A stretch of 60,397 nt of DNA from a virus (IMGVR_UViG_3300038560_000015:1-60397), one strand, 5' to 3'. Counted from the stretch's first letter, positions 5,448-59,596 are shown. Notes: generated by a model not told the origin, from the letters alone. Made by a program: numbers and translations.

Positions 5448-5647
5448 GCGAGCCTGCGCAAATTTACGCACCCGATCGCGACGTTCTTGATCGTCTCGGC
5501 GAAGCGCTGCGGCGCTATCGGCACGGGCTGATGCGGCCGTTGTGGGCGGACATGACCGAAGCCGATCGGGAAGGCTGGCGCAATCTCGCCGCGACCTTCG
5601 TCATGGACTTGAAGAACGTCGGCATTCGCATCGAGGTCGAGCGGTGA
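5444..5647 (+). CDS. Hypothetical protein
   Basis: Overlaps both neighbours by 4 nt. Confidence 0.55.
   Translation: MSEPAQIYAPDRDVLDRLGEALRRYRHGLMRPLWADMTEADREGWRNLAATFVMDLKNVGIRIEVER
5455..5470. repeat. Dispersed 16-bp palindrome, copy with one mismatch
   Basis: TGCGCAAATTTACGCA versus consensus TGCGCAAATTTGCGCA. Confidence 0.7.
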
Positions 5648-6048
5648 CCGTCGCCGTCTATACCATTGCCGAGGCGGCTGCGGTGCTCCGCAAAACCCCT
5701 CGATGGCTTGTCAACTGGCTGCGGGATAACCCGGTCGACGCGACCGGAACGCCGTTCTACACTCCGGCCGGCCGCACCAAGACATTCGACGATAGCGAGC
5801 TGTTCCGGATCCGTGTGGCGATGCGTGAGGCAGAGCAATGCCGCTTAAGATCATCACGTCCCGCAACAAGAAAACGAAAAACCTCTATATCCGCGGCTCG
5901 TACCTCGGAGTCCGAGTGGACCAAAGCTGCAAGACTGGCAAACGATCCGTCGCTGGCGGAATTCTCAAGCGGCTCGAAGCCAGCATCGAAAGAGGCGAGT
6001 ACCCACCGCGTGAAGCTGGAACTCGTAGCGACGAACCGACATTCTTGA
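5644..6048 (+). CDS. Excisionase-like HTH protein overlapping the int start
   Basis: YTIAEAAAVLRKTPRWL...KTFDDSEL; immediately upstream of int. Confidence 0.65.
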   Translation: MTVAVYTIAEAAAVLRKTPRWLVNWLRDNPVDATGTPFYTPAGRTKTFDDSELFRIRVAMREAEQCRLRSSRPATRKRKTSISAARTSESEWTKAARLANDPSLAEFSSGSKPASKEASTHRVKLELVATNRHS

Positions 6049-6881
6049 CCGCGGCAAACGCCTACATGGAAGCCGGAAGGCCGGCGCGCTACGTCGCGCC
6101 GCTGATCAAACATTTTGGCGAGACGCCAATCGCCGCGATCGATCAGGCCGCGATCGATGCCGCAGCCGTCGCCTTAGTGCCGAACGGCACGCCGATGAAC
6201 CGGACGCGGCTGGTCTACACGCCCGTCTCGGCGATCATGCACCACGCCGGCGACAAGCGGCCGATCAAGCGGCCGAAGGGTTTCCAGGGCCGCACGATCA
6301 CCGACTGGATCGTGCCGGAGGACGCGTTCGGCATCATAGCCGGCGCCGACACGTTCGATCCCGAATTCGGCACGCTCCTGTGCTTCCTACTCTACACTGG
6401 GCCGCGGATCAGCGCCGCGCTCAGCCAGCAGCGCGAGGATTTCAGGCTCGATGACGGCCGTGCGTGGGCGCGCAACCAAAAGGGCCAGCCGCACATGGAC
6501 ATCCGCTTACGCGCCGACCTCTGTGATCGCTTTAGAGCGCTGCTGGCGAGCCATGACCGCCATCGCGTGTTTCGGTGGCACTACGGCGCGCACCTCGCCC
6601 ACTTGCTCACGCGCGCCAAGCTGGCCTATCTGGGCATTGAGTGTCCCGTGCGCCGGCCGATCGGATGGCGGCAGCCGCCCAACCGTCTTAAGTGGGTGAC
6701 TTTCCACATCTGGCGCCATACTTGGGCGACTTGGATGCGGCATACAGGTGTTGACGTGAAGGGTCTCGTCGCCACCGGAAACTGGCGCTCGGAGAAAGCG
6801 GCATCACGCTACGCCCATGCCGTGGCGCGCCAGGAGTGGGATCACGTCGAGAAGCTGCCGGGGATGAAGGTGAAGGCATGA
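5838..6881 (+). CDS. int: Tyrosine integrase
   Basis: Catalytic set: GPRISAAL (R), KG, HIWRHTWATW (HxxR), GNW, RYAH (Y). Confidence 0.92.
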   Translation: MPLKIITSRNKKTKNLYIRGSYLGVRVDQSCKTGKRSVAGGILKRLEASIERGEYPPREAGTRSDEPTFLTAANAYMEAGRPARYVAPLIKHFGETPIAAIDQAAIDAAAVALVPNGTPMNRTRLVYTPVSAIMHHAGDKRPIKRPKGFQGRTITDWIVPEDAFGIIAGADTFDPEFGTLLCFLLYTGPRISAALSQQREDFRLDDGRAWARNQKGQPHMDIRLRADLCDRFRALLASHDRHRVFRWHYGAHLAHLLTRAKLAYLGIECPVRRPIGWRQPPNRLKWVTFHIWRHTWATWMRHTGVDVKGLVATGNWRSEKAASRYAHAVARQEWDHVEKLPGMKVKA

Positions 6882-7160
6882 GCGATCTGCTGAACGGGGA
6901 TTTTCTCGGGCCGGTCATCGACCGCCTTTGGCCGCGCACCTTTGGCCTCTCGCCTTGGCGAAAACGTATCGCTGTTGCGCTGCTTGATCCGATTGAGCTG
7001 CAGGCTTCTGCGGAGGCCTTGATTAGTTTTTGCCGCGCTATTGGACCATTGATGGGTCCGATGGGGAAACATAGGGGAATTGAATGATGCCGTCCGCCAG
7101 CTCAATTGCCGTGGCGCGCCAGGAGTGGGACAACGTCGAGAAGCTGCCGGGGATGAAGGT
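6818..7160 (+). repeat. 54-bp direct repeat of the int 3' end (6818-6871 and 7107-7160)
   Basis: 52 of 54 bases identical. Confidence 0.92.
6878..7087 (+). CDS. Hypothetical 69-aa cassette protein
   Basis: ATG overlaps the int stop; ends GKHRGIE. Confidence 0.55.
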   Translation: MSDLLNGDFLGPVIDRLWPRTFGLSPWRKRIAVALLDPIELQASAEALISFCRAIGPLMGPMGKHRGIE

Positions 7161-18428: not shown

Positions 18429-19097
18429 TCACGGCTCGCGGAAGGCGATGGCGCCGGCCAGCGACCGCGGTCGCTCCCGAACCGCATGGCCGTCGTTGCC
18501 CGACAGCACGATCCACCGGCCGCGATCTTGTCCGACAATCCGGCCGACATGGTGCGGCCAGACGACAAGGGCGCCGACATGCGGCGACGTTGGACGTCCA
18601 TAATGCGCCCAATTGCGCGCGAGGTTATAGGAGCGGTCCGACACGCCGAGCAGATGGCGCATGTAGCAGCCGCACCACGGAATGCCGCGACAATCGCTTG
18701 GCCGGTAGCCGATGACGCGCGAGACGCCTTCGACGACATGCGAGGTCATGCCGACCGCGACGTTCTCAGCGGTATCGATCGCGCCCTGCGCGGCGCCAAA
18801 GGCCATTGAAAACGGCCCCGGCTCGAACGGTGTGAAGGCGGCATCGAGCGCGATGCGAGGCTGCGCAAATTTGCGCAGCCGATACGCGGCATAGCGATGA
18901 CCGCTCCGGCGGTGGGCAACGTAATGCCTCTCATGAACCGGCTGCTCATTCCGCCGCACCGATCGCAGCATGTGGATCAGGCCATGGCCGATCCCTTGCA
19001 CCATCGGATTGCCCGGATGGCGGACATGAGCTTGCGCCGGACCGGCGAAGATCGCCGCGAAAACGCAAAAGATCAGCGTCGAGACGAACGCTCGCAT
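18429..19097 (-). CDS. Secreted CHAP-like cysteine peptidase
   Basis: Signal peptide ending AQA; WCG...NLARNWAHYG...HHVG...SGND. Confidence 0.75.
   Translation of the reverse strand: MRAFVSTLIFCVFAAIFAGPAQAHVRHPGNPMVQGIGHGLIHMLRSVRRNEQPVHERHYVAHRRSGHRYAAYRLRKFAQPRIALDAAFTPFEPGPFSMAFGAAQGAIDTAENVAVGMTSHVVEGVSRVIGYRPSDCRGIPWCGCYMRHLLGVSDRSYNLARNWAHYGRPTSPHVGALVVWPHHVGRIVGQDRGRWIVLSGNDGHAVRERPRSLAGAIAFREP
18859..18880. repeat. Dispersed palindrome, 22-bp perfect copy
   Basis: GGCTGCGCAAATTTGCGCAGCC. Confidence 0.9.
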
Positions 19098-35386: not shown

Positions 35387-35773
35387 TTAGGCAGTCTTGC
35401 CGTCTTTGCCGTCGCCCTTGGCCAGCTCGGCGCGCACCGCGTCTTCGGCCGCTTTGATCTTGGCCGACACGCCGGCGACGTGTTCCTTCACGGAATCGAC
35501 CAGGACGTCGGCGATGCGCGCATCGGCATAGTCAGCCGGCACGGCGACGCCCAGATGCTTGAGCGCGCCAAGCACGCCGTCGCGCAGCGCGGCGCTGTTG
35601 ACGCCGGTCGGTGCCGCCACCTTCGGCGGCGCATCGACGTCGATATAGCCGAAGGCTTCGACCAGGTGCCTGCCGTCGGCCGTATCGACGTCATAGACGC
35701 CCTTGCTGTTCGGCTTGATCTCAATGCCGCGAATGACGGGATTGCCGCGGCCTTCCGGAGCTTTCAATCGCAT
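35387..35773 (-). CDS. Hypothetical head-module protein
   Basis: Follows the capsid gene; MRLKAPEG domain. Confidence 0.7.
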   Translation of the reverse strand: MRLKAPEGRGNPVIRGIEIKPNSKGVYDVDTADGRHLVEAFGYIDVDAPPKVAAPTGVNSAALRDGVLGALKHLGVAVPADYADARIADVLVDSVKEHVAGVSAKIKAAEDAVRAELAKGDGKDGKTA

Positions 35774-35805: not shown

Positions 35806-35833
35806 CGAGGCTGCGCAAATTTGCGCAGCCTCG
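35806..35833. repeat. Dispersed palindrome, 28-bp perfect intergenic copy
   Basis: CGAGGCTGCGCAAATTTGCGCAGCCTCG just 3' of the capsid gene. Confidence 0.9.
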
Positions 35834-35858: not shown

Positions 35859-37430
35859 TTAGCCGTTGCCGATGTTGTTGATCACCGCCATGGACGGCGG
35901 GAAATAATGCTGCAGAACTTCGTCGGCATAGACGCCGGATTCCCATTTGCGGGACTTTAACGGCCACTGGATCTGGTAGTAGTCCTGCCGCGTCCGGATC
36001 TGCATGACGTTGCCGACGCCCGACATCGGATAGGGCAGCCGCTTCGACGTCATCAGGATGGTGCCCGCGGGCATGTTCGGGTGGATGCGGATGCTGAGCA
36101 CCTGCCCTCCCGCCAGCGAGAACTTGTTCTTGTAGGTCGACACCATGATGCCGCCGCCGATGTCGTCCTTGTTGGTGGCAAAGACGAAGCGCTGTGCGGC
36201 CGTGGTGCCTCCGGCAAGGATCTTCTTGCCGATATTCTCGGCTTCCTGCGAGTTGCACCAGATGGTGTCGGGAGAGAGCCGGTAGTTGTCCCAGCGGTTC
36301 TTGAGCGCCGCATCGATCTCGACCACGCCGCCGGCATTGTCCGCGGTGAGCGGCGTACCGGTGCCGGCCGTACCGGTCGCCTGCGAGGCGACATAGGCAT
36401 TCGACCCGGATTTCATCGCTTGTGTCAGCAACCCGTCGAACGCCAGCGCATTCGTCGAGTTGTCGTTGGCGCCGAGCGATGCGGCCGTCTGCGCACCGGT
36501 CGCGTTCGCCGAGGCCACCAGCGAGTTGATGGTGGTGATGGCGCCGAGCACTTCGGAGCCGGCAACCCCCCAGAACCAGGCGTAGCCCATGGCGCCGGAG
36601 ACTGCCGTGACGGTCGCGGCCAGCGTGCCGTTGCCGCCCATGGCGATGGTGGCGTTGGCGCTCTGCTTGCCGGCGCCACCGCCGAACGTATCGGACGAGC
36701 CGTCGGCATTGACGCGGGTGATCTGGCCCTGAATACCGCCGGAGACGGTGCCGTTGAGCAGGCCGTCGAGCGACAGTGGAACGCAGATCACCGACACCGT
36801 GCCCGTCAGTGTACCGCCGGACGAGCTCGACAGCGACGGCTGCGAGGGTTGCCCCAACGCCACCGAGGTGTCGCCGCCGAGGATCATCGCCTCTTCGCCG
36901 AGCATGCAGGCTTCCAGCCCGACCTTGGCCGCGATGGCGCGGATGTCGTCGAAGCCCATGCCGGCATATTGCGCTTCGAAGTCGACATTGGTCTCGATGC
37001 CGATCCCCTTATACGCTGCCGAGTAGTCGGCATAGGTGATGGCCTGCACGCCGCCGCGATTGCCGACCGAGACGCCGACACGCTGACCGGAGGTGTTGAT
37101 CCCGGTCGCGGCGCGCCAGTTCGCCTGGATGCCGCCCTTGCCGGACATGCGCGGGATTTCGTTGCGGAGCGGCGTGAGCACCGGATAGAGAAACTTCGCC
37201 CCGGTCTCGAGATCGTAGTAATTGAGGCCGTCCGTGGCAGAGCCCGGTTGCGTGAACGTCGACTTGATGAACGACAGCGGGTCGCCGGGCAGCGGCGAAT
37301 TGAAGGCCTTCTCGACCGAGGCGATGAACGCATCGATCGCGACGTCCTCCTTCAGCGAAGGCACCCAGGTGCCCGCCGATTTCATCAGCAGGTCTTTCAC
37401 GCTGGGCGTGAGTTTGATCATTTGCGACAT
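35859..37430 (-). CDS. Major capsid protein
   Basis: 523 aa after the protease; YDLE..AK.LYPVLTPLRN.IPR; IHPNMPAGTI; YADEVLQHYFP. Confidence 0.85.
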   Translation of the reverse strand: MSQMIKLTPSVKDLLMKSAGTWVPSLKEDVAIDAFIASVEKAFNSPLPGDPLSFIKSTFTQPGSATDGLNYYDLETGAKFLYPVLTPLRNEIPRMSGKGGIQANWRAATGINTSGQRVGVSVGNRGGVQAITYADYSAAYKGIGIETNVDFEAQYAGMGFDDIRAIAAKVGLEACMLGEEAMILGGDTSVALGQPSQPSLSSSSGGTLTGTVSVICVPLSLDGLLNGTVSGGIQGQITRVNADGSSDTFGGGAGKQSANATIAMGGNGTLAATVTAVSGAMGYAWFWGVAGSEVLGAITTINSLVASANATGAQTAASLGANDNSTNALAFDGLLTQAMKSGSNAYVASQATGTAGTGTPLTADNAGGVVEIDAALKNRWDNYRLSPDTIWCNSQEAENIGKKILAGGTTAAQRFVFATNKDDIGGGIMVSTYKNKFSLAGGQVLSIRIHPNMPAGTILMTSKRLPYPMSGVGNVMQIRTRQDYYQIQWPLKSRKWESGVYADEVLQHYFPPSMAVINNIGNG

Positions 37431-43235: not shown

Positions 43236-45146
43236 TTAGGTCGTGGCGAGCGCCACGGATGAAACGCGTTCAAACCCGATGTCGATAAGCGAAGCACTGT
43301 CCTGTTCGTCGACTTCAATGGTGCCATCGGCGCCGACGATGTACTGGCGCCCGGACATGCTGGACACATTGGAAATACCCGCCGGGGCGCGCAGGCAGAT
43401 TTCCTTTTTCGATCCCGCCGCGACGGTCGCGACAGCCGGCGACTTGGCGGCTTCCGACGCCGCACGGTAGAATTCCAAGATACCGCGGGCGCCTTTCGGC
43501 TCCGGATTGCGGATCATCACGTCGGCGGCGTCCCACAGCGCGAACACCGGATCGACCTTGGCATCGCCGGCGCTCTGCTTGGTCGCCGCTATCCCGGAGC
43601 GGCCGGCTTCGATCTTCACGTTGCCGACGCACCAATTCATCAGCGCGCTGGGCGAATGCAGGAGGGAGCCGTTCTCGAGCTTGCGTTCCGTCGTCTTGAT
43701 AGCACGCATCAAGCGCCAGCCCTGACCGATGCCGACGATCTGCTCGCTTGCCTCGTTGACGCCGATCTTGTCGAGCTCGTCGACGAGCTCCCCGTAGGGG
43801 CCCTCGTTGTCGATCGCGACGGCGGCGAGCAAGCCCGCGTCGTTCACCTTGGCGATCAGATCGACGACGGCGAGGATGTCCTGGTCGGCGCTGTCGATGA
43901 AAGTGAGGTCGCCGAGCTTTTCGAAGTCCTCGAGCAGCGAGGCGATGGCCTTGCGCCGTTCCAGCACCTTGCGATGGCACCAGGCGTGTGACCACAACAG
44001 CCAGCGCTTGGTTTCCCTTTCACGCCCGAGAGCCGCAAAGCCGAACAGATCGTCGAGCCCACCGCCATCGAGACCGATCACGATCGCCTCGCAGCGCGCG
44101 ATCAGGTCATCAAGCCTCAGAACCTTTTCGTCTTCGGACGTTGACCAGAACTCGGCGCCGGCCCACGATTCCGACTTGAGCCCGATGCCGATCTCGATGT
44201 TGAGATGCTGCGAGGCCCAGATCCGCTTCGCCTGCTCGTTCTTGGACTTCTCGGTTTCCCAGTCCGGGATCAGGCTCGTTAGGTGCATCGACCGGCCGAG
44301 GTTCGGCATCACCATCGGCCAGTTGACAGGATTGCTCCACTTGTCCTGGTCCTTGGCGATGTCGGCCGGGAACTCGTAGATGATCGGCAGCATGGACCGC
44401 ACCTCGCGATCCTTGAACCGGCCATCGCGGATCCCGCGCGCCATCGCGAGCTCGTCCTTCATCACGCCGGCGGGAATGTCGTCGCTCGCCGTCGTGGTGA
44501 TGAGAAGCAATCCCTCCTGCGTCTTTTCAAGGCCGCCGCGGATTTGCCGCAGCACCTTGGCCGCGTAGGGCAATCGGCCCAGCAAGTGCAGCTCGTCGAC
44601 CAGCGCCAGAAATAGGATCGAGCCGGTCAGGATATTGACGTCGAAGGTCTTGACCCGAAGCTCGGAGCCGGTGACCAGGTCCTCGATCGTTTTGACGTGG
44701 TCGCGGGTGCGAAACCGCCGCTTCAGGTCGACCGAGGCCTCGATCATGCCGGTCGCCTTGTCATAGGCGTTATCGGCGATGGCTTGTGTCGGCCCGACGA
44801 ACAGCGCCTCGGCGCGCGGCCGTCGGTTCATCAGCATGCCGACCAGTAGCAGGCCGGCAGAGTAGGTCGTTTTCGACTGCCCCTTCGGCAGCATCGCGAA
44901 GATGTCGCGGATGTAGCGGACCCGGGCGACCGGGTCCCACGATCCGAAGGCGACGCGGACGATGTCGCGAAACCACTGCCCGGCGGCGTCGCGCATCCTT
45001 GGCAGGCCGGGCTGATCGGGAAGCTGCAGCTCGTCGAAGAACTGCAGCCCGATGTCCGCCTCGCTCTCGATCAGCGGCAGCTTCGGTATGAGCGACCGGC
45101 CGGCCCGGATGCGGGCCTCCCAATCGACGCAGGAGGTGTCCCACAT
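43236..45146 (-). CDS. terL: Terminase large subunit with C-terminal extension
   Basis: PKGQSKTT Walker A; LVDELH Walker B; ITT; GLDGGGLDDL; KVDP. Confidence 0.92.
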   Translation of the reverse strand: MWDTSCVDWEARIRAGRSLIPKLPLIESEADIGLQFFDELQLPDQPGLPRMRDAAGQWFRDIVRVAFGSWDPVARVRYIRDIFAMLPKGQSKTTYSAGLLLVGMLMNRRPRAEALFVGPTQAIADNAYDKATGMIEASVDLKRRFRTRDHVKTIEDLVTGSELRVKTFDVNILTGSILFLALVDELHLLGRLPYAAKVLRQIRGGLEKTQEGLLLITTTASDDIPAGVMKDELAMARGIRDGRFKDREVRSMLPIIYEFPADIAKDQDKWSNPVNWPMVMPNLGRSMHLTSLIPDWETEKSKNEQAKRIWASQHLNIEIGIGLKSESWAGAEFWSTSEDEKVLRLDDLIARCEAIVIGLDGGGLDDLFGFAALGRERETKRWLLWSHAWCHRKVLERRKAIASLLEDFEKLGDLTFIDSADQDILAVVDLIAKVNDAGLLAAVAIDNEGPYGELVDELDKIGVNEASEQIVGIGQGWRLMRAIKTTERKLENGSLLHSPSALMNWCVGNVKIEAGRSGIAATKQSAGDAKVDPVFALWDAADVMIRNPEPKGARGILEFYRAASEAAKSPAVATVAAGSKKEICLRAPAGISNVSSMSGRQYIVGADGTIEVDEQDSASLIDIGFERVSSVALATT

Positions 45147-45147
45147 C

Positions 45148-47161: not shown

Positions 47162-47174
47162 GTTCCCCTCGCTT

Positions 47175-48344: not shown

Positions 48345-48812
48345 TTACCGGCCTGTGGATAAGCGGGAATAGCGGGGATTGACGGCAGGGGAATCGTCAT
48401 CGCAGCGCGACGGCGAGACGGGCGCACCGTAGGATGGTTTCGTGGGCGAAGTGGTGTCCGCGCCGTTTTTACGGTCGAGCGCGCTATAGCCCGGCGGCGG
48501 GTCGCCGAAGAATTCCTGCGTCGGCGTCCGACGATTTATCGCCTCGATGCGGCGCTCGCGTTCGGCGATGACGTAATCTGGCGCTTTTCCTTCGGCGTGC
48601 TCGGCGACATGCATCCGCGCCCTTGAGAAAGCGCCGCCGTTATTCACGAACCGATTTTCGACGCTCGTCTTTTGACGGCCAAGTTTTTTGGCGATGGCGC
48701 TAAAGGCACGGCTTTTCCAGCCGAAGCCGCCGCGCGCCTGCGCTTCGGTAAATATCTCCGTCGCGATTTTCGCTTCGCTATCGGACCAGGCATTGCGGCG
48801 GTCAAACCTCAC
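48345..48812 (-). CDS. Hypothetical protein
   Basis: FFGDPPPGYSALD motif. Confidence 0.65.
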   Translation of the reverse strand: MRFDRRNAWSDSEAKIATEIFTEAQARGGFGWKSRAFSAIAKKLGRQKTSVENRFVNNGGAFSRARMHVAEHAEGKAPDYVIAERERRIEAINRRTPTQEFFGDPPPGYSALDRKNGADTTSPTKPSYGAPVSPSRCDDDSPAVNPRYSRLSTGR

Positions 48813-49008
48813 AGCATCGCCTCCCCGGCCAAAACAACCGCAACCGGCACATGCTCGATGAGCTCAATGAATGCGCGCGGCACGCATCGTTGCCGTTCCG
48901 GCAGGCTTTGGCAGGCCTCATCGGCGAGCGCGAAGGCGCCGCAGAATTGGCAGCGCGACACGATGATGCCAAAGTCGAGATCGCGGAGCAGCGGGAGTGC
49001 GGTTTGTC

Positions 49009-50859
49009 TCATGCGCGGCTCCGCAGCATCGCCAGCACGCTCGCCATGTGTTCGCTCGCCGCTTGCTTGGCGTCGCGCCGGTCATCGTCGGTTTCGCTCT
49101 TGTCCTGCATCAAGCCTGTGAATTGGCTGGCCTTGAGATTGAGCGTCGACATGACGAACGGATCGGTGCCGAGATCGGTGACGAGGTAGTAAGCTAAAAC
49201 GCTGTCGCGCTGGCCCATGCGGTGGGCGCGATCTTCCGCCTGCCGATGAATGGCCGGCGACCAATCAAGCTCGGCAAAAACGACGACGCGGGCTCGCGCC
49301 TGCAGGCCGTCAAGGCCGGTCGCGACCCGCAGCGAGATCAAACAAAGGTTCGTCTCGTTTTCGACAAAGCGCCGCTGGGAGTCGTCCTTGACGTTTTTGT
49401 CTTCGCGACCGGTGATGCACGATGGCTTGAATTCGTCGAGCGCTTCGAGGATGCCGTCGACAATGGCGTGATGGTGCACGAAGCACAGCGTCGGTTCGCC
49501 GGCTTCCATGAGACCGCGCAGAAACCCAATAACGGCGGGCAGTTTTGCCATCGCCGTCGCACGCCGCGTTTCGCGGATCGCTTCGGCTTCCATCCGCGCG
49601 CGGTCGAACGGATCGTCGATTTCGGCGGCTTCGCGCGCGAGCTTTGCGGCATTGGAAACCAGATCGGCGAAAATACCGGCATCGCCGGCAATCGGTTCGA
49701 TCACGCGACGTTTCGCCGGCAGTTCCAGTTGCACGTCGGCCTTGCGCCTTCGCAGCATCAGGCGCCGATCGGCAAGATACTCGCCCAGCACTTCCGGATT
49801 ATCGACGACAAGCTTGCGGTCGACATAGACGCACCACGCGCGCTCGAAATCGGCGCGCGTCGACAGCGCGCCGCGGCAGAGCGCGTTCATCACGGTGTGC
49901 ATTTCCGGGCCGTGGTTATAGATCGGCGTGCCGCTCAATCCGGCGACGTTTTCCGCGGCGCGCGACAGATCAGTGCACGCTTCATGCTTGCGCGTGCCGG
50001 GGTGCCGAAGTTCCTGACATTCGTCGAAGATGACAGTCTTGACGCCGCGCTCGATCAGAAACGAGGACCATGCGTGCAGCACCAAATAATGCACGATGTA
50101 GATATCCGCTGTTGGCGTGGCATCGAGACGCTTTGCGCCGTTGAGCGATATCCAGCGCAGCGCGTCGGGATTGGCCGGCAGCGCGTCGCCGGCATCGCGC
50201 ACGCGCATGAATTCCGGCAGCTTCTTTTCCCAATGGCGCTGGACATGCGACTGCACCACGATCGCCGCCGGATAGGCGTTGATCCGATCGAGGAAGCCGA
50301 AGGCCTGGACGGTCTTGCCCAGGCCCATATCGTCGGCGAGCAACCCCTTCCGCACCGCGCAGAGCCATGCGACGCCTTCGGTTTGGAACGGCAGGAGATT
50401 GCCGAGAAAGTGCCGTCCCGCAGCGGTTTCTGCCGGTACTGACGCGGCGATATGGCGCTCGGCGACGAGCTGGCGATAGAAGCGATCGAACATTGCTTGC
50501 GCCGCGTCAGTCATCTTGAGCGGGAAGCGATGCAGCAATAGCAATAGCTCGTCGAAATTGCCGAGCGTCGCGGCGAACGAGTGCCGGTTGATCGAGGCGT
50601 CGCTGTCGTAACCAAACAGCTTGCGCGCCATCAGCACGGCATGCGCCGATCCCGATATCTTCCATTGCGGCCAGCGCGGCGATTTCGGATCGTCCGGCTC
50701 GGAATAATCGAGCGTGCCGACCGTGCTTTCGAGCGGCGGGCGCGTCAGAACCGTCGGCAACTTGACCGCCGGCTCGTCGTCCTTCCAGGCAAGCTTGTCC
50801 GCAAGCTTAAGCATCCAGTCAGGATCGTCGGCTGCGCAAATTTGCGCACGCTCGTTCAT
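49009..50859 (-). CDS. SNF2-family helicase/ATPase
   Basis: LLADDMGLGKT; DECQ; LSGTP; QAEDRAHRMGQ. Confidence 0.92.
   Translation of the reverse strand: MNERAQICAADDPDWMLKLADKLAWKDDEPAVKLPTVLTRPPLESTVGTLDYSEPDDPKSPRWPQWKISGSAHAVLMARKLFGYDSDASINRHSFAATLGNFDELLLLLHRFPLKMTDAAQAMFDRFYRQLVAERHIAASVPAETAAGRHFLGNLLPFQTEGVAWLCAVRKGLLADDMGLGKTVQAFGFLDRINAYPAAIVVQSHVQRHWEKKLPEFMRVRDAGDALPANPDALRWISLNGAKRLDATPTADIYIVHYLVLHAWSSFLIERGVKTVIFDECQELRHPGTRKHEACTDLSRAAENVAGLSGTPIYNHGPEMHTVMNALCRGALSTRADFERAWCVYVDRKLVVDNPEVLGEYLADRRLMLRRRKADVQLELPAKRRVIEPIAGDAGIFADLVSNAAKLAREAAEIDDPFDRARMEAEAIRETRRATAMAKLPAVIGFLRGLMEAGEPTLCFVHHHAIVDGILEALDEFKPSCITGREDKNVKDDSQRRFVENETNLCLISLRVATGLDGLQARARVVVFAELDWSPAIHRQAEDRAHRMGQRDSVLAYYLVTDLGTDPFVMSTLNLKASQFTGLMQDKSETDDDRRDAKQAASEHMASVLAMLRSRA
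50830..50849. repeat. Dispersed palindrome copy at the helicase 5' end
   Basis: GGCTGCGCAAATTTGCGCAC. Confidence 0.9.
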
Positions 50860-50860
50860 T

Positions 50861-51139
50861 TCACAGCATCCCCAGCGCGTGCAGATAGGTTTTTAAGATC
50901 GCCTCATGCTCCTTTCGCTCGGCGACGTCCTGCTTGCGGAGCCGCACGACGACGCGAAGCGTTTTCACGTCGAAGCCGTTACCCTTGGCTTCGGCATAGA
51001 TGTCGCGGATATCGTCAACGATGGCTTTTTTCTCTTCCTCCATGCGCTCGATGCGCTCGACGAAGGCCTTGAGCTGATCCCTAGCAGACTTTGTTGCGCC
51101 GCTGTTATGGCCTTCGCCGGGGTTTGTTTGCTCGCTCAC
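50861..51139 (-). CDS. GapR-like DUF2312 DNA-binding protein
   Basis: [16 protein letters not shown]...[12 protein letters not shown]...YLHALGM. Confidence 0.92.
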
Positions 51140-51152
51140 GTTTCAGCTTCCT

Positions 51153-52181
51153 CTAATTCGAGGGGGGGGGTGCGTTGGCTTCGTCGAACTTGGCGAGGTC
51201 GAAGAGTGCCGGCTCCATCGGCGTTTCTTCCGGCACATAGCGGGCTTTAAGATTGAGAACTGCCTGGCGGAAGTACGATGGCTTTAATTCAGCGCCGACC
51301 GCGCGGCGTCCCATCTGCACGGCGGTGACCAATTCGGAGCCGATGCCGGCGAATGGCGAAAACACCACGTCATGCTCGTTGCTCCAAAGGTCGACGCAGC
51401 GGCGGATGACGGTCAGTTGCAGGGGTGAGATATGGCGCTCGTCTTTTTCATCGCGAACACCATCGCGCGACAGGACGTCACTCGGCGCAATGTCGCTCCA
51501 CACCGGCTCGGCGTAGCGCTGCCAGACGGCGATGCTGTAGCGCTCGTCCCCCGGCCACAGCGTCTGCCGTCCGTGCATTCGCGATTCCTGCACGATCGGC
51601 CCGTGCGGCGTCGTTTCCGTGCCGAAGTAGCAGTCCATGATGCCGCTGATTGGCTCAGGATTTTCGCCGGGCTTGCGCATTGTGACGATGTAATCGGCCA
51701 CAGCCATGCGGGAGAGTGCTGAATCCTTGGCAAGCTGTTTATGCAGAAGCCCAATGTGTTTGGTGCGCTGCATCGCCTGCACCGGGTCTTTTCGGATGCA
51801 AACTTCCGAGTGGTAGATAAAACCGGCGCCAACATGTGCCCGGATGATCTCGCCGCGGAAATCGCGCAAGCCGATATAGCCATCGCGCGTCTTGCTTGTA
51901 GGCAGTTGCATGCAGTGGATCGATATGAGCCGGCCGGGCTTTGTGATCCGAAAGCATTCCTCGATCAGAAACTCATAATGCGCCCAAAACTCAGCGAACG
52001 ATGTGCAATTCGAGATGTCGCGAAGATCGTCAGAGAAGGTAAACAAGCCCGGGAATGGCGGGCTATAGATCGTATAGTGCACGGACGCATCGGGAAGTCC
52101 GCGCGCAACCTCTACGCAATCGCCGTTCCAGATCGCCCAGTCGTCGCCGATAACCTGATCGGCCACTGTCACGTCAGCCAT
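51153..52181 (-). CDS. Amino (probably N4C) DNA methyltransferase
   Basis: GDC; SPPF; HISPLQL; SPFAGIGSE; ELKPSY. Confidence 0.9.
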   Translation of the reverse strand: MADVTVADQVIGDDWAIWNGDCVEVARGLPDASVHYTIYSPPFPGLFTFSDDLRDISNCTSFAEFWAHYEFLIEECFRITKPGRLISIHCMQLPTSKTRDGYIGLRDFRGEIIRAHVGAGFIYHSEVCIRKDPVQAMQRTKHIGLLHKQLAKDSALSRMAVADYIVTMRKPGENPEPISGIMDCYFGTETTPHGPIVQESRMHGRQTLWPGDERYSIAVWQRYAEPVWSDIAPSDVLSRDGVRDEKDERHISPLQLTVIRRCVDLWSNEHDVVFSPFAGIGSELVTAVQMGRRAVGAELKPSYFRQAVLNLKARYVPEETPMEPALFDLAKFDEANAPPPSN

Positions 52182-54619
52182 TGCGGCACCTGCATAGGCT
52201 TGTCGTGGATTGAGATCGTGCGCTGCGGTCGCAAATTGACGGCCGTCAAATCGCGCATGTGCTCGGCCATCGATGCCGCCATGTAGTCGGCAGCCTCTTC
52301 CTTGGCTTCGAGATTAGCGACGACCGCGCCTTCCACGTCGGCGGCGACGAGATGAACATTGACCGCCCTGGTTTGACCGAAGCGCCAGCAGCGGCGGATC
52401 GCTTGATAAAGCTGCTCAAAGCTGTCGTTAAGCCCGACGAACACCATGTCGGCACAGCGCTGAAAGTTCATGCCCCAGCCGGCAATGCTCGGCTTGCTGA
52501 TCAGTATTTGATGTTCACCTCTCGCAAAGCCTAGAAGGCGCGCGGCCTTCACATCCGGATCGTCGCTGCCGCGAACCTCGATCGCGCCTGGGATCGCCTG
52601 CGTGAGCGCGGAGGATTCATCGTTGAGATTGCACCAGACGAGCCATTGTCGGTCACGCGCGCTGTTGACTATCGCCGCAGCGGCGGCCACGCGCTCAGTC
52701 AAGGTATTGCGTCGGGCGGCAAGTCGCTCTTGAAGGGTCCGTGCCAGTTGAGGTTCAAGCAACCCCTCGCTGCCCTTGGTCTTGATCGTGACCGGGAATT
52801 TGTTAAGCGCGGGCAGATCATAACCCGCCTCTTCGTAACCGAGATCGCGCGGATGGCGGATCAGGACCGACCATGACGCCAGCCAGCGCCAAAAATCATC
52901 CTCGGCATGCCCCTTAAGGCGCCAGTCGCTGCCCTGCCGAAGGCCATGGTTCTCGATATTTGTGGCGCGGCTCGATCCGTCATGGACGAACCAAGTAGCG
53001 AGCATTTCCTTGTGCTGCAAAATGCCGAGAAATTCGGCATGGTTGCCGAGTTCGACGTAATCGTTAGGTGCCGGCGTTGCCGTGCAGCACAGCCGATATT
53101 GTGTCTCTGCGAATGTCTCGATCAGAGATTGGCGCGTCTTGCCGTCAAACGCTTTGAGGATGCTCGATTCATCAAGCACGATGCCTGCAAATTTAGAGGC
53201 ATCGAATTTTTCCAGCCGCTCGTAGTTCGTCACAACGATGCTGCTGGCAGCCTCGGCTTGGCTTCGCGCGTAGGCGACAGACGCTATTGAAAATCTCTCC
53301 GCCTCCGCGACCGTCTGTTGGGCAACGGCAAGCGGCGTCAGGATCAGAACAGGTCCAGCAAACCGGCTCACAATCTGATCGGCCCACGATAGCTGCTGTA
53401 TCGTCTTTCCGAGACCGGTGCCGGCGAATATTGCCGCCCTGCCGCGCTTAAGCGCCCAGCGCACGATATCGCGCTGGAACGGCTTTAGCGCGGGATTGAG
53501 AGCGTCGCCCGTTATATCGAAGCCGTTCGCAATCGGCAGGCGAATCTTGCTTTCGAGAAAGTGCCGGTACTCGCCATTGCGTTTGTGGCCTATAGCGGGC
53601 GCGTCATCCTCATCCTTCCAAGCCAATTTCTCGGCCAGCTTGAGCATCCAATCCGGATCATCGGGAAGCGAGCCGGCAAGCGCTGGATTCGCGACAGCGC
53701 CTGCCGTCTCTGGCGCTACGGATTGGGCTGGCGGGCTCGCCTCCGTAGCGATCGGTTCGTCCCCGCGAGCTTCTGCCCGCTCCTCACGCGGCGCAGCTTC
53801 CGCTTGTGTTTGCAGCGCAGGCTCTTGGTGGACATGGTCGTCTCCTTTATCGAACTTCTGCCAATGCGCCTCGATCGCGGCGTCCATTTCGTGATGCTGC
53901 GATGGCCGATAGGCAAACGATGCGCCGCAGTCGCAGGCGCCGATGCTCATCGGCTTGTCGGGATCGGAATAATCGATGGTGTGGTGAACGACGTGGCCGG
54001 CTGGATAGACCTTGCGGGCTTTGTTTTGGGCGACGAGTTCGGCGACGACCGGATCGGTTATATGCGCCGGCGGCCCGGCGCTTTCTTTTTCAGCGTCGCT
54101 CGCTTCGCTTTGCGCGCTGTGTGCGGGCCGAGGATGTCGCGCTCTTTCAAGATGTTCTTCATCCTGAGAACGTTCCTGCTGGCACGAATCGGCTTGTGTT
54201 TCGGCTTGCGGCTCATCGGCACTCTCCGACTTTATCCTAGCGACGGACGGCTTGAGCGACAACGCCCATTCGATCATCCGGCCCGCGGCGCCGGCGTCCC
54301 AATGGATGCCCTGGTCGGCAGACTGTCGCGCAAAGCGCCGGAAATCCTTGATCTTGCGCGCGATCGAGCAGCGCAGCGCCGCTTCTCTTGTCGGGAATTG
54401 CGGATTGTCGATCGAGAAGCCGTTATGGCGCACAAGCCATTGGCCGTTATCGAGAGGCAGTACGCCGATGATCGCGACCGCCGAGCGATGCTGCGGATTG
54501 TCGGGCTCGAATATCTCGCCCTGATCGTCGCGGAAGAAACGGCCCATGCCGGCTTGCGGCGGCTCGCCGGTGGCCGTCTGCAGAAGCGGAGCGATCAGGT
54601 TGGGGTCGTGGGCGTTCAT
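52169..54619 (-). CDS. SNF2-like helicase with long N-terminal extension
   Basis: GTGLGKT; DESS; TATPAPND; QAIRRCWRFGQ. Confidence 0.9.
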   Translation of the reverse strand: MNAHDPNLIAPLLQTATGEPPQAGMGRFFRDDQGEIFEPDNPQHRSAVAIIGVLPLDNGQWLVRHNGFSIDNPQFPTREAALRCSIARKIKDFRRFARQSADQGIHWDAGAAGRMIEWALSLKPSVARIKSESADEPQAETQADSCQQERSQDEEHLERARHPRPAHSAQSEASDAEKESAGPPAHITDPVVAELVAQNKARKVYPAGHVVHHTIDYSDPDKPMSIGACDCGASFAYRPSQHHEMDAAIEAHWQKFDKGDDHVHQEPALQTQAEAAPREERAEARGDEPIATEASPPAQSVAPETAGAVANPALAGSLPDDPDWMLKLAEKLAWKDEDDAPAIGHKRNGEYRHFLESKIRLPIANGFDITGDALNPALKPFQRDIVRWALKRGRAAIFAGTGLGKTIQQLSWADQIVSRFAGPVLILTPLAVAQQTVAEAERFSIASVAYARSQAEAASSIVVTNYERLEKFDASKFAGIVLDESSILKAFDGKTRQSLIETFAETQYRLCCTATPAPNDYVELGNHAEFLGILQHKEMLATWFVHDGSSRATNIENHGLRQGSDWRLKGHAEDDFWRWLASWSVLIRHPRDLGYEEAGYDLPALNKFPVTIKTKGSEGLLEPQLARTLQERLAARRNTLTERVAAAAAIVNSARDRQWLVWCNLNDESSALTQAIPGAIEVRGSDDPDVKAARLLGFARGEHQILISKPSIAGWGMNFQRCADMVFVGLNDSFEQLYQAIRRCWRFGQTRAVNVHLVAADVEGAVVANLEAKEEAADYMAASMAEHMRDLTAVNLRPQRTISIHDKPMQVPQWLT

Positions 54620-56673
54620 TCCGCAGCCTCGCGCGCGAATTCCGGAACGCCGTTATCGTTGACTTCAAGCGGAGCGAAGTTCGCCTCGACCAGCGCCCGC
54701 GACATGGGCGGGCAGACGCTGTTGCCGCATTTCGAGACCTGATCGGTTTTGCTGATCGGCCGCTCGATCAGCTTGCCGACGTGACCGGCACTGATCTCGA
54801 TATGCTGGCCGCGATTGATGATATAGCTGTCGGGAAATCCTTGCGCGCGGAACAGTTCGCGCGGCGTCAGCATCCGCATGCCGATGTCGGCGATGACGTA
54901 AGTCTCGCCTTTGATCTCGACCGTCACGGCCGCGTAGCGGTCCTTGCAATCGATCGTGTGCAGAGGATCATCAGCCGCCTGGTGCTGCCCGCCGGAGCCG
55001 TGCGCTTTCGTCAGGAACGCGCTGACGGCCGCCTGGTGACCGCCTTGCGCACTGACGGTCGCCGCCGGACTTTCGACAGGACGCGGCATGAGCTGATCGT
55101 CGGCCGTGCCGCGCATGTTCATAAGGCCGGCCGAGACGACGGCCTGATGCGATCCGCTCTGCAGAATCGTTGACGCCGGCTCGCGCGCATCGCGGCCGGG
55201 ATTTTGCACGCCGCCGCGGCTGACGTTGTGCTGGGCGAGGAACGCCGCGACCAGACCGAAGCGGTTATATTGCGACGTCGCCGTATGCAGCGGCTCGGCG
55301 GCGCCGGATGCCGGCTTGTCGCCGAAATTATTCTTGGTGACGTGTGCGGCGATGACGGCGTGCCGAGGATCGCCGGTCACCGTGCGGATCGGCTCTTCGG
55401 CGCTCGCCGAGCGGTCCTTGCCTCCGGCGCCATCGCCAAAGAATGCAGAGAGGTGTGCGGTCACCACATTCAAATGCGCGCCGCCGGCAGTGACGACGTG
55501 TGTCGGCTGGTCCGCGCCGTTGAACGGCTTTTGCGCGTTGCGGTTCGTGTTCAGGTGTGCTGCGACCAGGCCATGCTTGACGCCGCCGGCGACGACAGTG
55601 CCGAGGGGCTTGTCGAGACCGGGGACGCGAGGATCCTGTCCGTCCCGCTCGCCGTAGCCAGTTTGAATGAGCGTCGGCGCGATAATGGCGTTGGCGTCTT
55701 TGCGCGATGCCGTGACGGTGTGCAGCGGCTCCTCCGCTGATCGTACCGCGCCTCCTTGCTGCGCGTAGGTCACGACTGGCGAGACGATAGCTTTTTCGCC
55801 GCGATGCGCGCCGGTTACCGTCATGAACGGCTCGGTTACCGCCTCACCTCGTTCGCCGCCCTGATGCGTCAACGAGACGATGAACGGCTCTTTGGCGTCG
55901 ATCACATAGCGCTTCACGCCCTTGGCGATGCGCGCCATCGTGGCCGGCGCCAGCGGGCGCTTGATGCCGAAGGGTTTGGCTTCCTCTTTCGTCAGGAAGA
56001 TCGAATAGCACGGGAGCGACCAATCGATGACCTCGGCGGCCGTGCGCCAGGGCAGAAGCTTGCCGGATTTCACGGCATCGGCTTTCGGATCGCCGTGCGT
56101 CGGCACCGGCCAGATGATCGGCAGGCCGTCGCGGCGGGCGATCAGGAACAGCCGCTTGCGGATGGTCGGCGCGCCGTAGTCGCAGGCGCGCAGCTCGCGC
56201 CATTCGACCTTGTAGCCGAGCTTATTAAGCTCGCCGATGAAGCGGTTGAATTCCTCGCCCTTGCGCAGCTTGCACGGACGGTTGTCGTCGCCGAGCGGCC
56301 CCCAGGTTTTGAACTCTTCGACGTTTTCCATCATGATGACGCGGGGCGCGACCTGGCGCGCCCACTTCACGATCACCCAGGCGAGGTCGCGGATTTTCTT
56401 CTCGACCGGCTTGCCGCCCTTGGCCTTACTGAAATGTTTGCAATCCGGACTGGCCCACAATAGCCCGACCGGGCGGCCCTGGCAGACGGCGGACGGATCG
56501 ACCTTCCAGATATCGTGCGGGATGTGCATCGTCGCCGGATGATTGATCCGGTGCATCGCCATGGCGGTCGCGTCGTGGTTGATCGCGATGTCGGGAGAAA
56601 TCCCGAGCGCCATTTCGATGCCGGTCGAAGCACCCCCGCCGCCGGCAAAGCTATCGACGATCAATTCCCGCAC
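54616..56673 (-). CDS. C5-cytosine DNA methyltransferase with repeated variable region
   Basis: FAGGGG; SPDC; ENV; R.RLF; RMLTPRELFRAQGF; GNSV. Confidence 0.93.
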   Translation of the reverse strand: MRELIVDSFAGGGGASTGIEMALGISPDIAINHDATAMAMHRINHPATMHIPHDIWKVDPSAVCQGRPVGLLWASPDCKHFSKAKGGKPVEKKIRDLAWVIVKWARQVAPRVIMMENVEEFKTWGPLGDDNRPCKLRKGEEFNRFIGELNKLGYKVEWRELRACDYGAPTIRKRLFLIARRDGLPIIWPVPTHGDPKADAVKSGKLLPWRTAAEVIDWSLPCYSIFLTKEEAKPFGIKRPLAPATMARIAKGVKRYVIDAKEPFIVSLTHQGGERGEAVTEPFMTVTGAHRGEKAIVSPVVTYAQQGGAVRSAEEPLHTVTASRKDANAIIAPTLIQTGYGERDGQDPRVPGLDKPLGTVVAGGVKHGLVAAHLNTNRNAQKPFNGADQPTHVVTAGGAHLNVVTAHLSAFFGDGAGGKDRSASAEEPIRTVTGDPRHAVIAAHVTKNNFGDKPASGAAEPLHTATSQYNRFGLVAAFLAQHNVSRGGVQNPGRDAREPASTILQSGSHQAVVSAGLMNMRGTADDQLMPRPVESPAATVSAQGGHQAAVSAFLTKAHGSGGQHQAADDPLHTIDCKDRYAAVTVEIKGETYVIADIGMRMLTPRELFRAQGFPDSYIINRGQHIEISAGHVGKLIERPISKTDQVSKCGNSVCPPMSRALVEANFAPLEVNDNGVPEFAREAAE

Positions 56674-57955: not shown

Positions 57956-57959
57956 GGCG

Positions 57960-58319
57960 TCACCATTGCTTGCCGTTGGCGCGCAATCGCGCTTCGGCTT
58001 TGTGGTCCGCCCGCTGTTTGTTGTAAGCCCGTTTCTCAGCGACGGCCGCGTCCAGGTCGTAACCGAAGGCGCCGCAGTAATCGAAAATTCTGATTAGAAC
58101 GTCGGCGAATTCCACTTCCGCCATCCGCCGATGCGGCAGATGGTCGTCCATTAAATTCTTGCGCTCGCCTTCCATGGCCTCCGACAGTTCGGAGTGCATG
58201 AGGCAGATCATCTCGCCCTTGTTGCGATTGAGACGCTCGCCGGTCGCGGGATTGCGCCACCAATGCTCGTTCTCAGTATGACATTCGCGCGCGAGATCGT
58301 TGAGCGGAGTATTGCTCAT
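57960..58319 (-). CDS. MazG-like nucleotide pyrophosphohydrolase
   Basis: LMHSELSEAMEGERK; EVEFADVLIRIFD; EKRAYN..RADH. Confidence 0.8.
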   Translation of the reverse strand: MSNTPLNDLARECHTENEHWWRNPATGERLNRNKGEMICLMHSELSEAMEGERKNLMDDHLPHRRMAEVEFADVLIRIFDYCGAFGYDLDAAVAEKRAYNKQRADHKAEARLRANGKQW

Positions 58320-59596
58320 TCTGCCGCTTCCGCAGGTAAGAGGGATTGCTGTTGCGGGACGTTGGCTTCGTTGCCCCAGCCGAACCACGTTTCCGGAAGC
58401 GCACCGTTGATGCGCGGGAACAGCTCGACCTTCGGCAGATCGGGGTAGTAAGCGGTGATCAGATCGCGGAAATATTTCGGCTTGGCCGAATGCTTGCCGC
58501 GCGCCTCGCGATAGAGCGACGGCCGCAACAGCGACGGCTCCGGCGCCGGCATCTTGCCGCGCGTCGCGATCAGCAAACACTCATGCGCGCTGCGGTTCCA
58601 GAAGCCCATGCCGAGCGCGGCCTTGTCCCAGGCGAACTCGGAGACGTATTCAAAACCCCAGCCCTCGATCAGCCGCATGGTTTTGCGGAGCCACGGCACG
58701 GTCGACCAGATGAAGAGAACCGCGTCAGACGTCGCCAGCGCGCCGATCGGCAGCTTGGCGATCTCTTCCTCGGTCATGGTCGGATAGTGGTTTTCGGTCG
58801 AGCGGTCGCTGTCGCCGGCGGCGAATTTTGTCGGCGGATCCATGTAAAGGACCGGGAATTTACGCTCGGTCGGCAGTTCGCTGTTGCCGACGGAGATCGC
58901 CGCAAGCTTGCCGATGCGTTCGCCGCGGCGCTTTTCGTTTTGCTCCTTGCGGATTTTCTTGGCCGCTTCGAGGATCTCTTTTTCCGAGAGCTTGGCGACT
59001 TCGCGCTGTTGCTCTTGCGGCAGGCTGGCGAGATCGGCTGCCGTCGAGACTGCAACGCGCCCTTCGTCGACGGCTTGCTGCAGCTCTGGCGCGCCCTTTT
59101 CCTGCACCGCTGCCGCGCTTTGCAGGCTGCGCCGACTGACATTGAGCAGCTCGGCCGCCTCGCCTTGCGCCACGATCGGCACCGGCTCGGAGGCCTCGAC
59201 GCCGGGCAGCGTGGGTGCGCAAATTTGCGCAGCCTCGCGGGTGTGCTGGTTGGAGCCGACCTTGAACTTGGCGAGCCGCGCCGCCACCATGGCGCGCTGG
59301 CTTTCGTCCATGTGCCGGCGCTTGAGATTCTTCGAGACGACGTAATTGAGCGCAGCGCGATCGTCGCCGACGAAAAGCTCGGTGCGCACCGGAAGTGTTT
59401 TAAGCGCGCACGCCCGATAGCGGTTGCGGCCATCCAGGATCATTCCGCGATGCAGCTTGACCGTCTCTGCCTGGCCGTTGGCGGCAATGTCGTCGGCGAG
59501 CTCGGCAAGCTCGGACGCCGGCAACGGCGGGAATAAGTTCGCCATCGGATGGTCTTTAAGCGGCGCATGGCCGGGCATGAGGGTCGAGCCGGTCAT
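58316..59596 (-). CDS. ParB-like domain, HTH and MT-A70 methyltransferase fusion
   Basis: HP.ANLFP; ILDGRNRYRAC; N..RRH..ESQRA; QGEAAELLNVSRRS; DPPT; WGFEY; HS.KP; VELF. Confidence 0.88.
   Translation of the reverse strand: MTGSTLMPGHAPLKDHPMANLFPPLPASELAELADDIAANGQAETVKLHRGMILDGRNRYRACALKTLPVRTELFVGDDRAALNYVVSKNLKRRHMDESQRAMVAARLAKFKVGSNQHTREAAQICAPTLPGVEASEPVPIVAQGEAAELLNVSRRSLQSAAAVQEKGAPELQQAVDEGRVAVSTAADLASLPQEQQREVAKLSEKEILEAAKKIRKEQNEKRRGERIGKLAAISVGNSELPTERKFPVLYMDPPTKFAAGDSDRSTENHYPTMTEEEIAKLPIGALATSDAVLFIWSTVPWLRKTMRLIEGWGFEYVSEFAWDKAALGMGFWNRSAHECLLIATRGKMPAPEPSLLRPSLYREARGKHSAKPKYFRDLITAYYPDLPKVELFPRINGALPETWFGWGNEANVPQQQSLLPAEAAE
59215..59237. repeat. Dispersed palindrome copy inside the ParB-fusion gene
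   Basis: GTGCGCAAATTTGCGCAGCCTCG. Confidence 0.9.

Follow-up and report, generated by a model that had tools for sequence, protein, structure and literature searches.

Why would a temperate phage keep copies of one 16-bp palindrome at intervals round its genome, with one of them inside the gene for a ParB-like protein? The question is raised by IMGVR_UViG_3300038560_000015:1-60397, which is an entire virus record of IMG/VR, 60,397 bp long (the window), with a CheckV completeness of 100%. The protein concerned joins a ParB-type N-terminal domain and a helix–turn–helix (HTH) to an MT-A70 methyltransferase-like domain. On balance, the favoured view is that the palindromes are cognate sites of this protein and nucleate action in cis by its C-terminal domain. 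From comparison of homologous sequences, it is very probable that the protein reads the sites; a specific course of nucleation, spreading and methylation in cis is proposed only tentatively. A sequence-only reading of this DNA had earlier suggested that the HTH of the fusion reads the palindrome, and that core suggestion is strongly supported by the position of the site within the gene, by covariation and by concerted change of the copies.

Palindrome copies in the phage genome

The palindrome, TGCGCAAATTTGCGCA, occurs exactly at positions 18862, 35812, 50833 and 59216, and the copy at 5455, TGCGCAAATTTaCGCA, differs from it by one mismatch. A recount returned the same four exact copies and single one-mismatch copy that the sequence-only reading had listed. 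The copies, to which no strand is assigned, are as follows.

59216..59231, in-gene copy, encoding AAQICA, residues 122–127 of the ParB-like protein
50833..50848, exact copy, on codons 4–9 of the SNF2 helicase open reading frame (ORF) 49009..50859 (minus strand), read AQICA; same context in the prophage of bacterial genome G056
35806..35833, exact copy, intergenic, within a 28-bp extended palindrome between 35859..37430 (minus strand, phrog_13692) and 35387..35773 (minus strand), 39 and 32 nt from its neighbours
18862..18877, exact copy, within ORF 18429..19097 (minus strand), read LRKFAQ
5455..5470, one-mismatch copy, 8 nt past the stop of 5175..5447 (plus strand) and ~370 nt upstream of the tyrosine integrase 5838..6881 (plus strand), read AQIYA; matched in position by a copy in sister phages

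Four copies lie within ORFs and the fifth lies between co-directional genes. As first described, one copy is intergenic and the others are read in differing frames (AQICA, AQIYA, LRKFAQ).

A count against shuffled sequence, which had been suggested as a check, gave a mean of 0.03 matches over 100 dinucleotide shuffles against the 5 seen, and 0 shuffles reached 5. With the tolerance raised to 3 mismatches, the window still gave 5 matches against 0.75 expected, and no degenerate further copies of TGCGCAAATTTGCGCA were found in the window at ≤3 mismatches. The gaps between copies are 13.4, 17.0, 15.0 and 8.4 kb, with 6.6 kb across the record ends, so that the spacing round the circle (6.6–17.0 kb) agrees with that first reported. 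Restriction-site avoidance was considered and rejected, as the window shows no shortage of the half-site TGCGCA (37 occurrences, where a Markov estimate predicts 28.5).

Symmetry continues into the flanks of the copies and reaches its maximum in the perfect 28-bp palindrome at 35806–35833. The flanks had been described as often (CGA)GGC...GCC; GGC stands to the left of three of the five copies and GCC to the right of three of the five. Flank symmetry is also often extended in other phages, with letters that differ between phages. Such extension would suit RNA or single-strand DNA hairpins (a terminator, processing site or origin) that work independently of the ParB-like protein, and the intergenic copy does fold far better than its shuffles (−28.4 kcal/mol, z −4.6). 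However, no such advantage over shuffles is seen for the four other copies (z −0.2 to −1.7), and hairpins leave unexplained the single sequence shared within each genome, its tracking of HTH residues and its fixed AATT centre, all described below; this explanation is considered highly improbable. An intrinsic terminator at 35812 was also rejected, as no T-run was found.

The ParB-like fusion protein

The gene that contains the in-gene copy, and the parts of its product, are as follows.

58316..59596, minus strand, gene for the fusion of a ParB-like N-domain, HTH and MT-A70 domain (P0001, 426 aa; Pfam MT-A70, 4.2e-15; PHROG ParB-like phrog_4715, 6.4e-18)
59255..59596, minus strand, ParB-type N-terminal (NTPase-fold) domain, residues 1–114 (DGRNRYRA, corresponding to GxxRxxA, and NLKRRH; aligns to the ParB and Noc N-domains)
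59168..59254, minus strand, disordered linker, residues 115–143, which contains the in-gene palindrome (pLDDT <50 at residues 115–127; variable length in alignment A2)
59096..59167, minus strand, HTH, residues 144–167, with recognition helix S155-RRSLQSA (modelled helices 144–150 and 155–167; aligns to the Spo0J HTH)
58367..58855, minus strand, MT-A70 methyltransferase-like domain, residues 248–410, with motif IV reading DPPT (Pfam; Foldseek)

The ParB part was judged from a sequence profile, since the whole-model Foldseek matches shown were MT-A70 entries. The family profile matches the solved structures of Noc (7ng0, 3.3e-6), Spo0J (1vz0, 3.5e-6) and ParB (7bnr, 1.3e-5), and the alignment to all three spans both the N-domain and the HTH. 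Residues D55, G56, R59, N90, R93 and R94 never vary across 75 homologues, at least 90% of which share R57 and A62. The conserved DGRxRxxA and NLxRRH patterns of the N-domain fit a putative nucleotide switch. No second ParB-like gene was found in the window.

The C-terminal domain is assigned to MT-A70 by Pfam (PF05063, 56.5 bits against a cut-off of 23.9) and by Foldseek. Searched with the whole AF2 model (pLDDT 89.4), Foldseek gave 9u92_A as the best match (6.8e-13), and all 50 matches shown were MTA1 or METTL3 entries. The proposal of a methyltransferase-like fusion partner is upheld by both methods, with the qualification that motif IV is DPPT rather than DPPW.

A C-terminal ParB dimerisation domain is absent from the fusion, the C-terminus being MT-A70. 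The homodimer model scored 0.75, against 0.00 for the best of three controls. That mark was attained for 20 of 30 proteins whose solved structures are pairs of one chain, and for 1 of 23 with single-chain structures. Its interface involves MT-A70 residues 300–361; at least 62% of contacts were common to the homodimer runs, and partner pLDDT was at least 74. As solved MT-A70 dimers exist, this score may reflect likeness only. The modelled MT-A70 dimer may offer a stand-in for the absent ParB dimerisation domain.

The effector end of the family is varied. Among the 75 full-length members, the C-terminal domain is MT-A70 in 42, Dam-type in 6 and N6_N4 in 1, and 25 have no Pfam C-terminal match at 1e-4. 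This variety suggests that the ParB–HTH module and its site form a portable address that has been fused to different effectors.

Conservation of the in-gene palindrome

Homologues were chosen without the motif, using the peptide patterns DGR[HN]R..AC and RRHL..Q, which were taken from alignment A2 (13 N-terminal modules) and exclude the linker. The best 80 of 533 or more IMG/VR relatives were analysed. Of the 80, 68 have a 16-mer with AATT at its centre and complementary bases in at least 7 of its 8 pairs, situated 302–413 nt into the match; 31 of these 68 are perfect palindromes. Such palindromes number 3.0 per kb in the 280-nt stretches concerned and 0.032 per kb over the remainder of those loci.

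The 68 palindromes comprise 39 distinct sequences, which are read in frame 0 in 37 cases, frame 2 in 30 and frame 1 in 1. The centre is AATT in all 68, as AAATTT in 48 and CAATTG in 20. Symmetry of the DNA persists although the peptides that it encodes vary, with xANLx, AQICA and APIGA among them. As the peptide varies, the symmetry persists and the stretch is disordered in the model, the constraint appears to act on the DNA. The sequence-only reading had placed one copy in the linker just before the HTH and had proposed conservation at the DNA level; an equivalent palindrome at that position in most homologues, and symmetry kept through many variants and three frames, bear out both points.

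A search with the exact 16-mer leads to the same gene family. TGCGCAAATTTGCGCA is found in 104 IMG/VR stretches, mostly G+C-rich contigs, with differing flanks. When the neighbouring ORFs were clustered, one family was dominant, namely the ParB-like homologues (28 loci). The 16-mer lies within the ParB-like homologue in 22 loci, and in 20 of these 22 it is in the linker, 15–40 residues before the HTH; the in-gene copy is read xAQICA in 19 loci and CANLR in 3. Fifty long records were then scanned whole for the 16-mer and the ParB-like family. The family is encoded by 16 of the 50, comprising 8 of the 10 records with at least two copies and 8 of the 40 with one copy. Further copies are present in 6 of the 12 records that have a window-type site within the gene. 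This proportion is not a selection effect, because the in-gene copy alone would have brought these records into the set.

Several other settings of the 16-mer were observed. In L060:4536-5963 and L080:1820-3244, which encode a distinct ParB–N6_N4 type of protein without an HTH, the same 16-mer (read PAQICAS) lies in the inter-domain linker; it may be there by chance or as a shared junction. In the P2-like contigs L039, L040, L059, L063, L070, L094 and L105, the 16-mer recurs where baseplate genes meet (V/W-like). In G007 and G059, 27.4 kb separates this baseplate-junction 16-mer from the in-gene copy, and the ParB–HTH protein concerned has a C-terminal domain without a Pfam match. In L008, L036, L064, L085, L101 and others, the 16-mer lies within a small gene whose product reads ...ATIAQICASTGWQ...HTVRG... 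and looks like a winged-helix protein. No ParB-like gene was found within 1.5 kb of these small ATIAQICASTGWQ genes, and G017 has one 17 kb away.

The invariant AATT, together with the MT-A70 domain carried by 42 of 75 members, could alternatively mean that the palindrome is itself a methylation target. The HTH would recognise the site and MT-A70 would methylate the central ApT, so that the palindrome would bear a rare epigenetic mark specific to these sites instead of serving for loading. The Tetrahymena MTA1 DNA methyltransferase complex is among the nearest solved folds, and a prokaryotic MT-A70 enzyme is reported, in the article text of PMC7556043, to be specific for GATC, in which ApT is also central. 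However, the module and palindrome also occur with Dam-type (6/75), N6_N4 (1) or no detectable methyltransferase, and motif IV of the window protein is DPPT. Furthermore, helices that fill both major grooves would probably leave the centre of the site hard to reach. A methylation target is therefore judged to be quite improbable. The idea of an M.MunI-like (CAATTG) MT-A70 enzyme was dropped, as the prokaryotic enzyme in the text of PMC7556043 is GATC-specific.

Covariation with the recognition helix

Covariation was measured over 72 rows, comprising 71 loci with at least 6 of 8 pairs and the window. The residue aligned to window S161 is Arg in 20 of 20 rows with a CAATTG centre and in 0 of 52 rows with AAATTT. 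Where half-site position 3 is G, the residue aligned to Q160 is Arg in 15 and Lys in 4 of 20 rows; neither residue occurs there in the other 52. At half-site position 4, G is accompanied by Arg in 59 of 62 rows and C by Asp in 5 of 6. The peaks of mutual information are ordered along the recognition helix. Pairings of Arg or Lys with G and of Asp with C are commonplace in direct readout of DNA.

The switches were placed on a tree from which the columns of the linker and helix had been excluded. Six or more well-supported switches of the centre are forced, and the best tree has 14. The S161-aligned residue follows the centre in 6 of 6 independent pairs (p 0.031), and position 3 and the Q160-aligned residue changed in the same way in 6.8, and in opposite ways in 0, of 8 independent pairs (p about 0.016). 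The sequence-only reading had proposed, as a check, to ask whether the linker palindrome covaries with the recognition helix, and it does so across the set, with one exception outside it, L306, which is considered below.

The covarying residues align to the recognition helix of Spo0J, which inserts into the major groove of parS. By residue numbering in the aligned sequences, the covarying positions would correspond to R173 of Caulobacter ParB, a recognition-helix residue that bonds a parS guanine according to the portion of PMC7383237 cited here.

Dispersed copies in sister phages and hosts

Sister phages G051–G055 (ParB 59–62% identical) carry 2–5 copies of a different variant, TGCGCCAATTGGCGCA, in the gene and elsewhere, and TGCGCCAATTGGCGCA is absent from the window. 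Their copies are as follows.

G053, four exact copies
G055, three exact and two one-mismatch copies
G052, three exact copies and one one-mismatch copy
G054, three copies in 31 kb
G051, two copies in 23 kb

Two places match between the sisters and the window: the ParB-like gene, and a site next to the homologue of 4103..4564, near the integrase (compare the copy at 5455). Another sister copy lies within the counterpart of the 52169..54619 helicase, a position without a copy in the window. In the 68 loci taken together, the density of additional copies is 8.0 per Mb for the variant that a phage itself uses (8 copies, 6 loci) and 0.11 per Mb for the variants of other phages.

The closest relative, L306, belongs to a prophage of an alphaproteobacterial genome (G056:C4, about 247–293 kb), and its N-terminal half is 68% identical. 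In G056 (6.3 Mb), five of the six matches lie within 45 kb around the ParB-like gene, one at the start of an SNF2 gene and one within the ParB-like gene. G058 has 2 matches 32 kb apart, and G059 has two pairs, each 27.4 kb apart.

These genomes also bear on whether the palindrome is a host repeat or host-factor site, as exact matches to the 16-mer number at least 120 across bacterial genomes from many phyla, with one copy per 8-kb locus. A ParB-like gene lies near 6 of 120 genome-collection loci. However, by our own estimate roughly 140 matches to a 16-mer would arise by chance in 596 Gb, so the count is about that of chance, while matches in whole genomes cluster in prophages. It follows that the motif is phage-borne and phage-specific. 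The sequence-only reading had named an abundant host repeat as an outcome that would undermine its proposal; the clustering in G056 and the use of a different variant by the sisters point the other way, and a host origin is scarcely credible.

Genome-wide recurrence of the palindrome in homologous phages, also put forward as a check by that reading, is found in the sisters, while most homologues have the in-gene copy only. The in-gene copy is thus a trait of the family, and the presence of several copies is a trait of the window lineage and a few others.

The prevalence of a single in-gene copy would fit autoregulation, and hence a site-specific regulator or roadblock comparable to KorB on its operators and VirB on its own site. 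Autoregulation would then fall to the in-gene copy and the tuning of neighbouring genes to the others, with neither sliding nor methylation directed in cis. The copy at 50833 covers the SNF2 translation start, another lies upstream of the integrase, and about a third of homologues (25/75) have no recognisable enzyme domain, as a regulator would allow. Against this, the sites mostly fall within coding sequence or between co-directional genes and apparently not at promoters, and P2-like relatives have their second copy where baseplate genes meet. No promoter-like match was found near the intergenic copy in a scan with the sigma-70 consensus only. The N-domain also keeps GxxRxxA and NLxRR, which a plain repressor would not need. 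Taken together, a regulator is regarded as unlikely.

Proposed mechanism

Nucleation on phage DNA, with action in cis, is ranked as the most likely reading of the palindromes, above the regulator, methylation-target, partition, hairpin and host-site readings. It is proposed that the protein forms a dimer, probably through its MT-A70 domains, which would set one recognition helix on each half-site. One site is built into the gene itself, at the linker, a stretch in which the protein can tolerate variation, and the window lineage has added four further copies around its genome. The sites would nucleate the protein on phage DNA, and the C-terminal enzyme or scaffold would act in cis on that molecule. 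By analogy with ParB, which in chromosomal and plasmid ParABS systems is a clamp gated by CTP, loading could be followed by nucleotide-gated closure and sliding.

Several observations weigh against this proposal. First, 12 of the 80 homologues have no good palindrome at the linker position, among them one sister gene, L110 (G052), which has lost the in-gene palindrome, with 4 copies elsewhere in the genome. Dispersal is also limited: in a group of records with variant GGCAAATTTGCC, 12 of 14 have one copy and 2 have two, and in a group with TGCAAATTTGCA, 10 of 13 have one copy, one has three and 2 have none. Secondly, L306 (G056), which lies outside the 72-row set, has AAATTT-type sites yet carries Arg at the S161-aligned position; Arg there may be permissive, as described for the evolutionary paths between ParB and Noc. 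Thirdly, the site and the helix are only ~30 codons apart, and linkage inside a recombining block could account for some of the in-gene covariation. Linkage alone is argued against by the remote copies, which have changed in concert.

The remaining difficulties concern the protein. Pfam ParB_N alone falls below its cut-off on the fusion, and alignment of Box III to Noc shows no counterpart of the glutamate that precedes the conserved Asn, so that hydrolysis may differ from that of ParB. Motif IV (residue 253) reads DPPT-K-F in the window, L109 and L110, compared with DPPW in 26 of 75 members and DPEW in 8 of 75. As the window has DPPT rather than DPPW, its catalysis is uncertain. Judged by its motif, the window domain may have lost or changed its activity, much as in the non-catalytic partners of eukaryotic MT-A70 dimers. 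More speculatively, it could be a weak enzyme, or a scaffold beside the two neighbouring methyltransferases.

A broader and rather doubtful generalisation is that the large ParB–HTH family of phages constitutes a self-contained, fast-evolving address system, in which every protein has a loading site within its gene and nucleotide-gated clamps carry a methyltransferase or a weakened MT-A70 scaffold along site-bearing DNA. If so, a weakened scaffold would recruit neighbouring methyltransferases, and only phage DNA would be marked, in cis. Self would be told from non-self by the place at which the enzyme loads and not by a short target motif. The pairing of Arg or Lys with G and of Asp with C would then give a recognition code for designing orthogonal ParB-type DNA tags.

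For each family member (at least 533 IMG/VR relatives), the analysis yields a predicted site and predicted base-reading residues of the helix. These would represent a natural set of orthogonal protein–site pairs, of a kind already used as DNA labels. Phage fusions of the ParB fold to DNA-modifying enzymes are common, and such predictions make their function and place of action on DNA accessible to direct tests.

Relation to known systems

The fusion resembles ParB–parS in having a ParB-type N-domain (GxxRxxA, NLxRR) followed by an HTH, and a 16-bp palindromic site. A site within the gene also has a precedent, as a parS site reportedly lies inside parB/spo0J of Bacillus subtilis. The phage system differs in having no ParA, in having MT-A70 in place of the dimerisation domain, and in belonging to an integrating phage. 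Moreover, its site lies in the disordered linker of its own protein and takes 39 forms in 68 loci, whereas parS is conserved across bacteria. The phage site and fusion are a variant of the ParB–parS theme. Specificity probably lies in the recognition helix, as is described for ParB and Noc in the portion of PMC7383237 cited.

A partition role, with the palindromes as plasmid-like centromeres that use a host ParA, has its closest parallel in SopB of N15. N15 is a temperate phage with a ParB-family protein and four palindromic sites placed apart (IR1–4), as given in the part of PMC7205306 cited, and the palindromes of the window, of 16 bp, are probably also read by a ParB-family HTH. N15 differs from the window phage in that its prophage is a linear plasmid, which is actively partitioned and has SopA. 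The window phage has a tyrosine integrase and an MT-A70 fusion in place of the C-terminal ParB dimerisation domain, its relatives are classed as integrated proviruses, and it has no ParA-type gene. Searches with PF13614 and PF01656 gave 0 matches in the 60.4-kb record, with controls that ring in 14 of 14 genomes, in agreement with the sequence-only reading, which had seen no parA. As ParA is missing and an integrase is present, this is not considered a partition system, and the chance that the sites are centromeres is put as very slight.

KorB, VirB and Noc are further counterparts, as ParB-family readers of several dispersed palindromes on one replicon with a role outside or additional to partition. 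On RK2, KorB has 12 dispersed operators, and VirB reads its own site. Unlike the window fusion, these proteins have no enzyme domain; KorB sites are at promoters, and the NBS sites of Noc are many and chromosomal. To our knowledge, none of the three has a site reported within its own coding sequence. KorB is described as a CTPase clamp in work cited in the consulted part of PMC13229309.

The architecture itself, a ParB fold with a DNA methyltransferase domain on a phage without ParA, places the protein in the class of ParB-CTPase-fold–methyltransferase fusions surveyed in PMC12704722, the main text of which describes prophage enrichment and the lack of ParA. There, various ParB-fold fusions are reported to bind ATP or CTP, with ATP binding by some fusions to SAM-dependent methyltransferases. 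The phage fusions it describes are to N6_N4 and Methyltransf_23, and MT-A70 fusions are mentioned for archaea. The main text gives no DNA site and uses 'palindrom' 0 times; its supplements, with 50 tested proteins, were outside the search and may hold family members.

Iyer, Zhang and Aravind predicted that ParB-linked adenine methyltransferases modify phage DNA, and noted fusions of a ParB-type HTH to Dam-clade enzymes (article text of PMC4738411). In the ParB–terminase–methyltransferase loci of that text, the enzymes are tied to packaging and stand beside the terminase, whereas the window gene is 13 kb from the terminase. No cognate site for phage ParB-fold fusions is given in the text of PMC12704722, PMC13229309, PMC4738411 or PMC7556043, supplements aside.

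Genomic context

The gene map is based on third-position G+C and family searches. A plus-strand block at 1–12 kb contains the tyrosine integrase (5838..6881), and the remainder of the genome is on the minus strand. Assigned genes outside the ParB-like locus are as follows.

54616..56673, minus strand, C5 methyltransferase, 685 aa
52169..54619, minus strand, SNF2 helicase
51153..52181, minus strand, N6_N4 methyltransferase
49009..50859, minus strand, SNF2 helicase
43236..45146, minus strand, large terminase
35859..37430, minus strand, phrog_13692 protein, 523 aa

The region 49009–56673, just downstream of the ParB-like gene, forms one minus-strand block with two SNF2-type helicases and C5 and N6_N4 methyltransferases, and the phage has three methyltransferase-like genes. 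Other minus-strand genes encode a replication initiator, an antiterminator, an HNH endonuclease, a portal, a protease, a head–tail adaptor, a tape measure and tail proteins. A search for near-identical known phages gave one weak match only, to Brevundimonas phage vB_BpoS-Strzyga (78% over 438 nt, with 30000–50000 only as the query).

The record ends, 1–259 and 60197–60397, consist of GGC-rich repeats with periods of 9–12 nt (family D1, 18 copies), and minus-strand ORFs run off both ends (1..720 and 60133..60396). From these repeats and run-off ORFs, the record looks cut within one repeat-rich gene, and the genome appears to be circular or permuted. Within the plus-strand block, three pairs of direct repeats lie just after the integrase, at 6818–6871/7107–7160 (96%), 7063–7104/8390–8431 (81%) and 9176–9206/9498–9528 (97%), and could be repeated regulatory or gene-start sequences.

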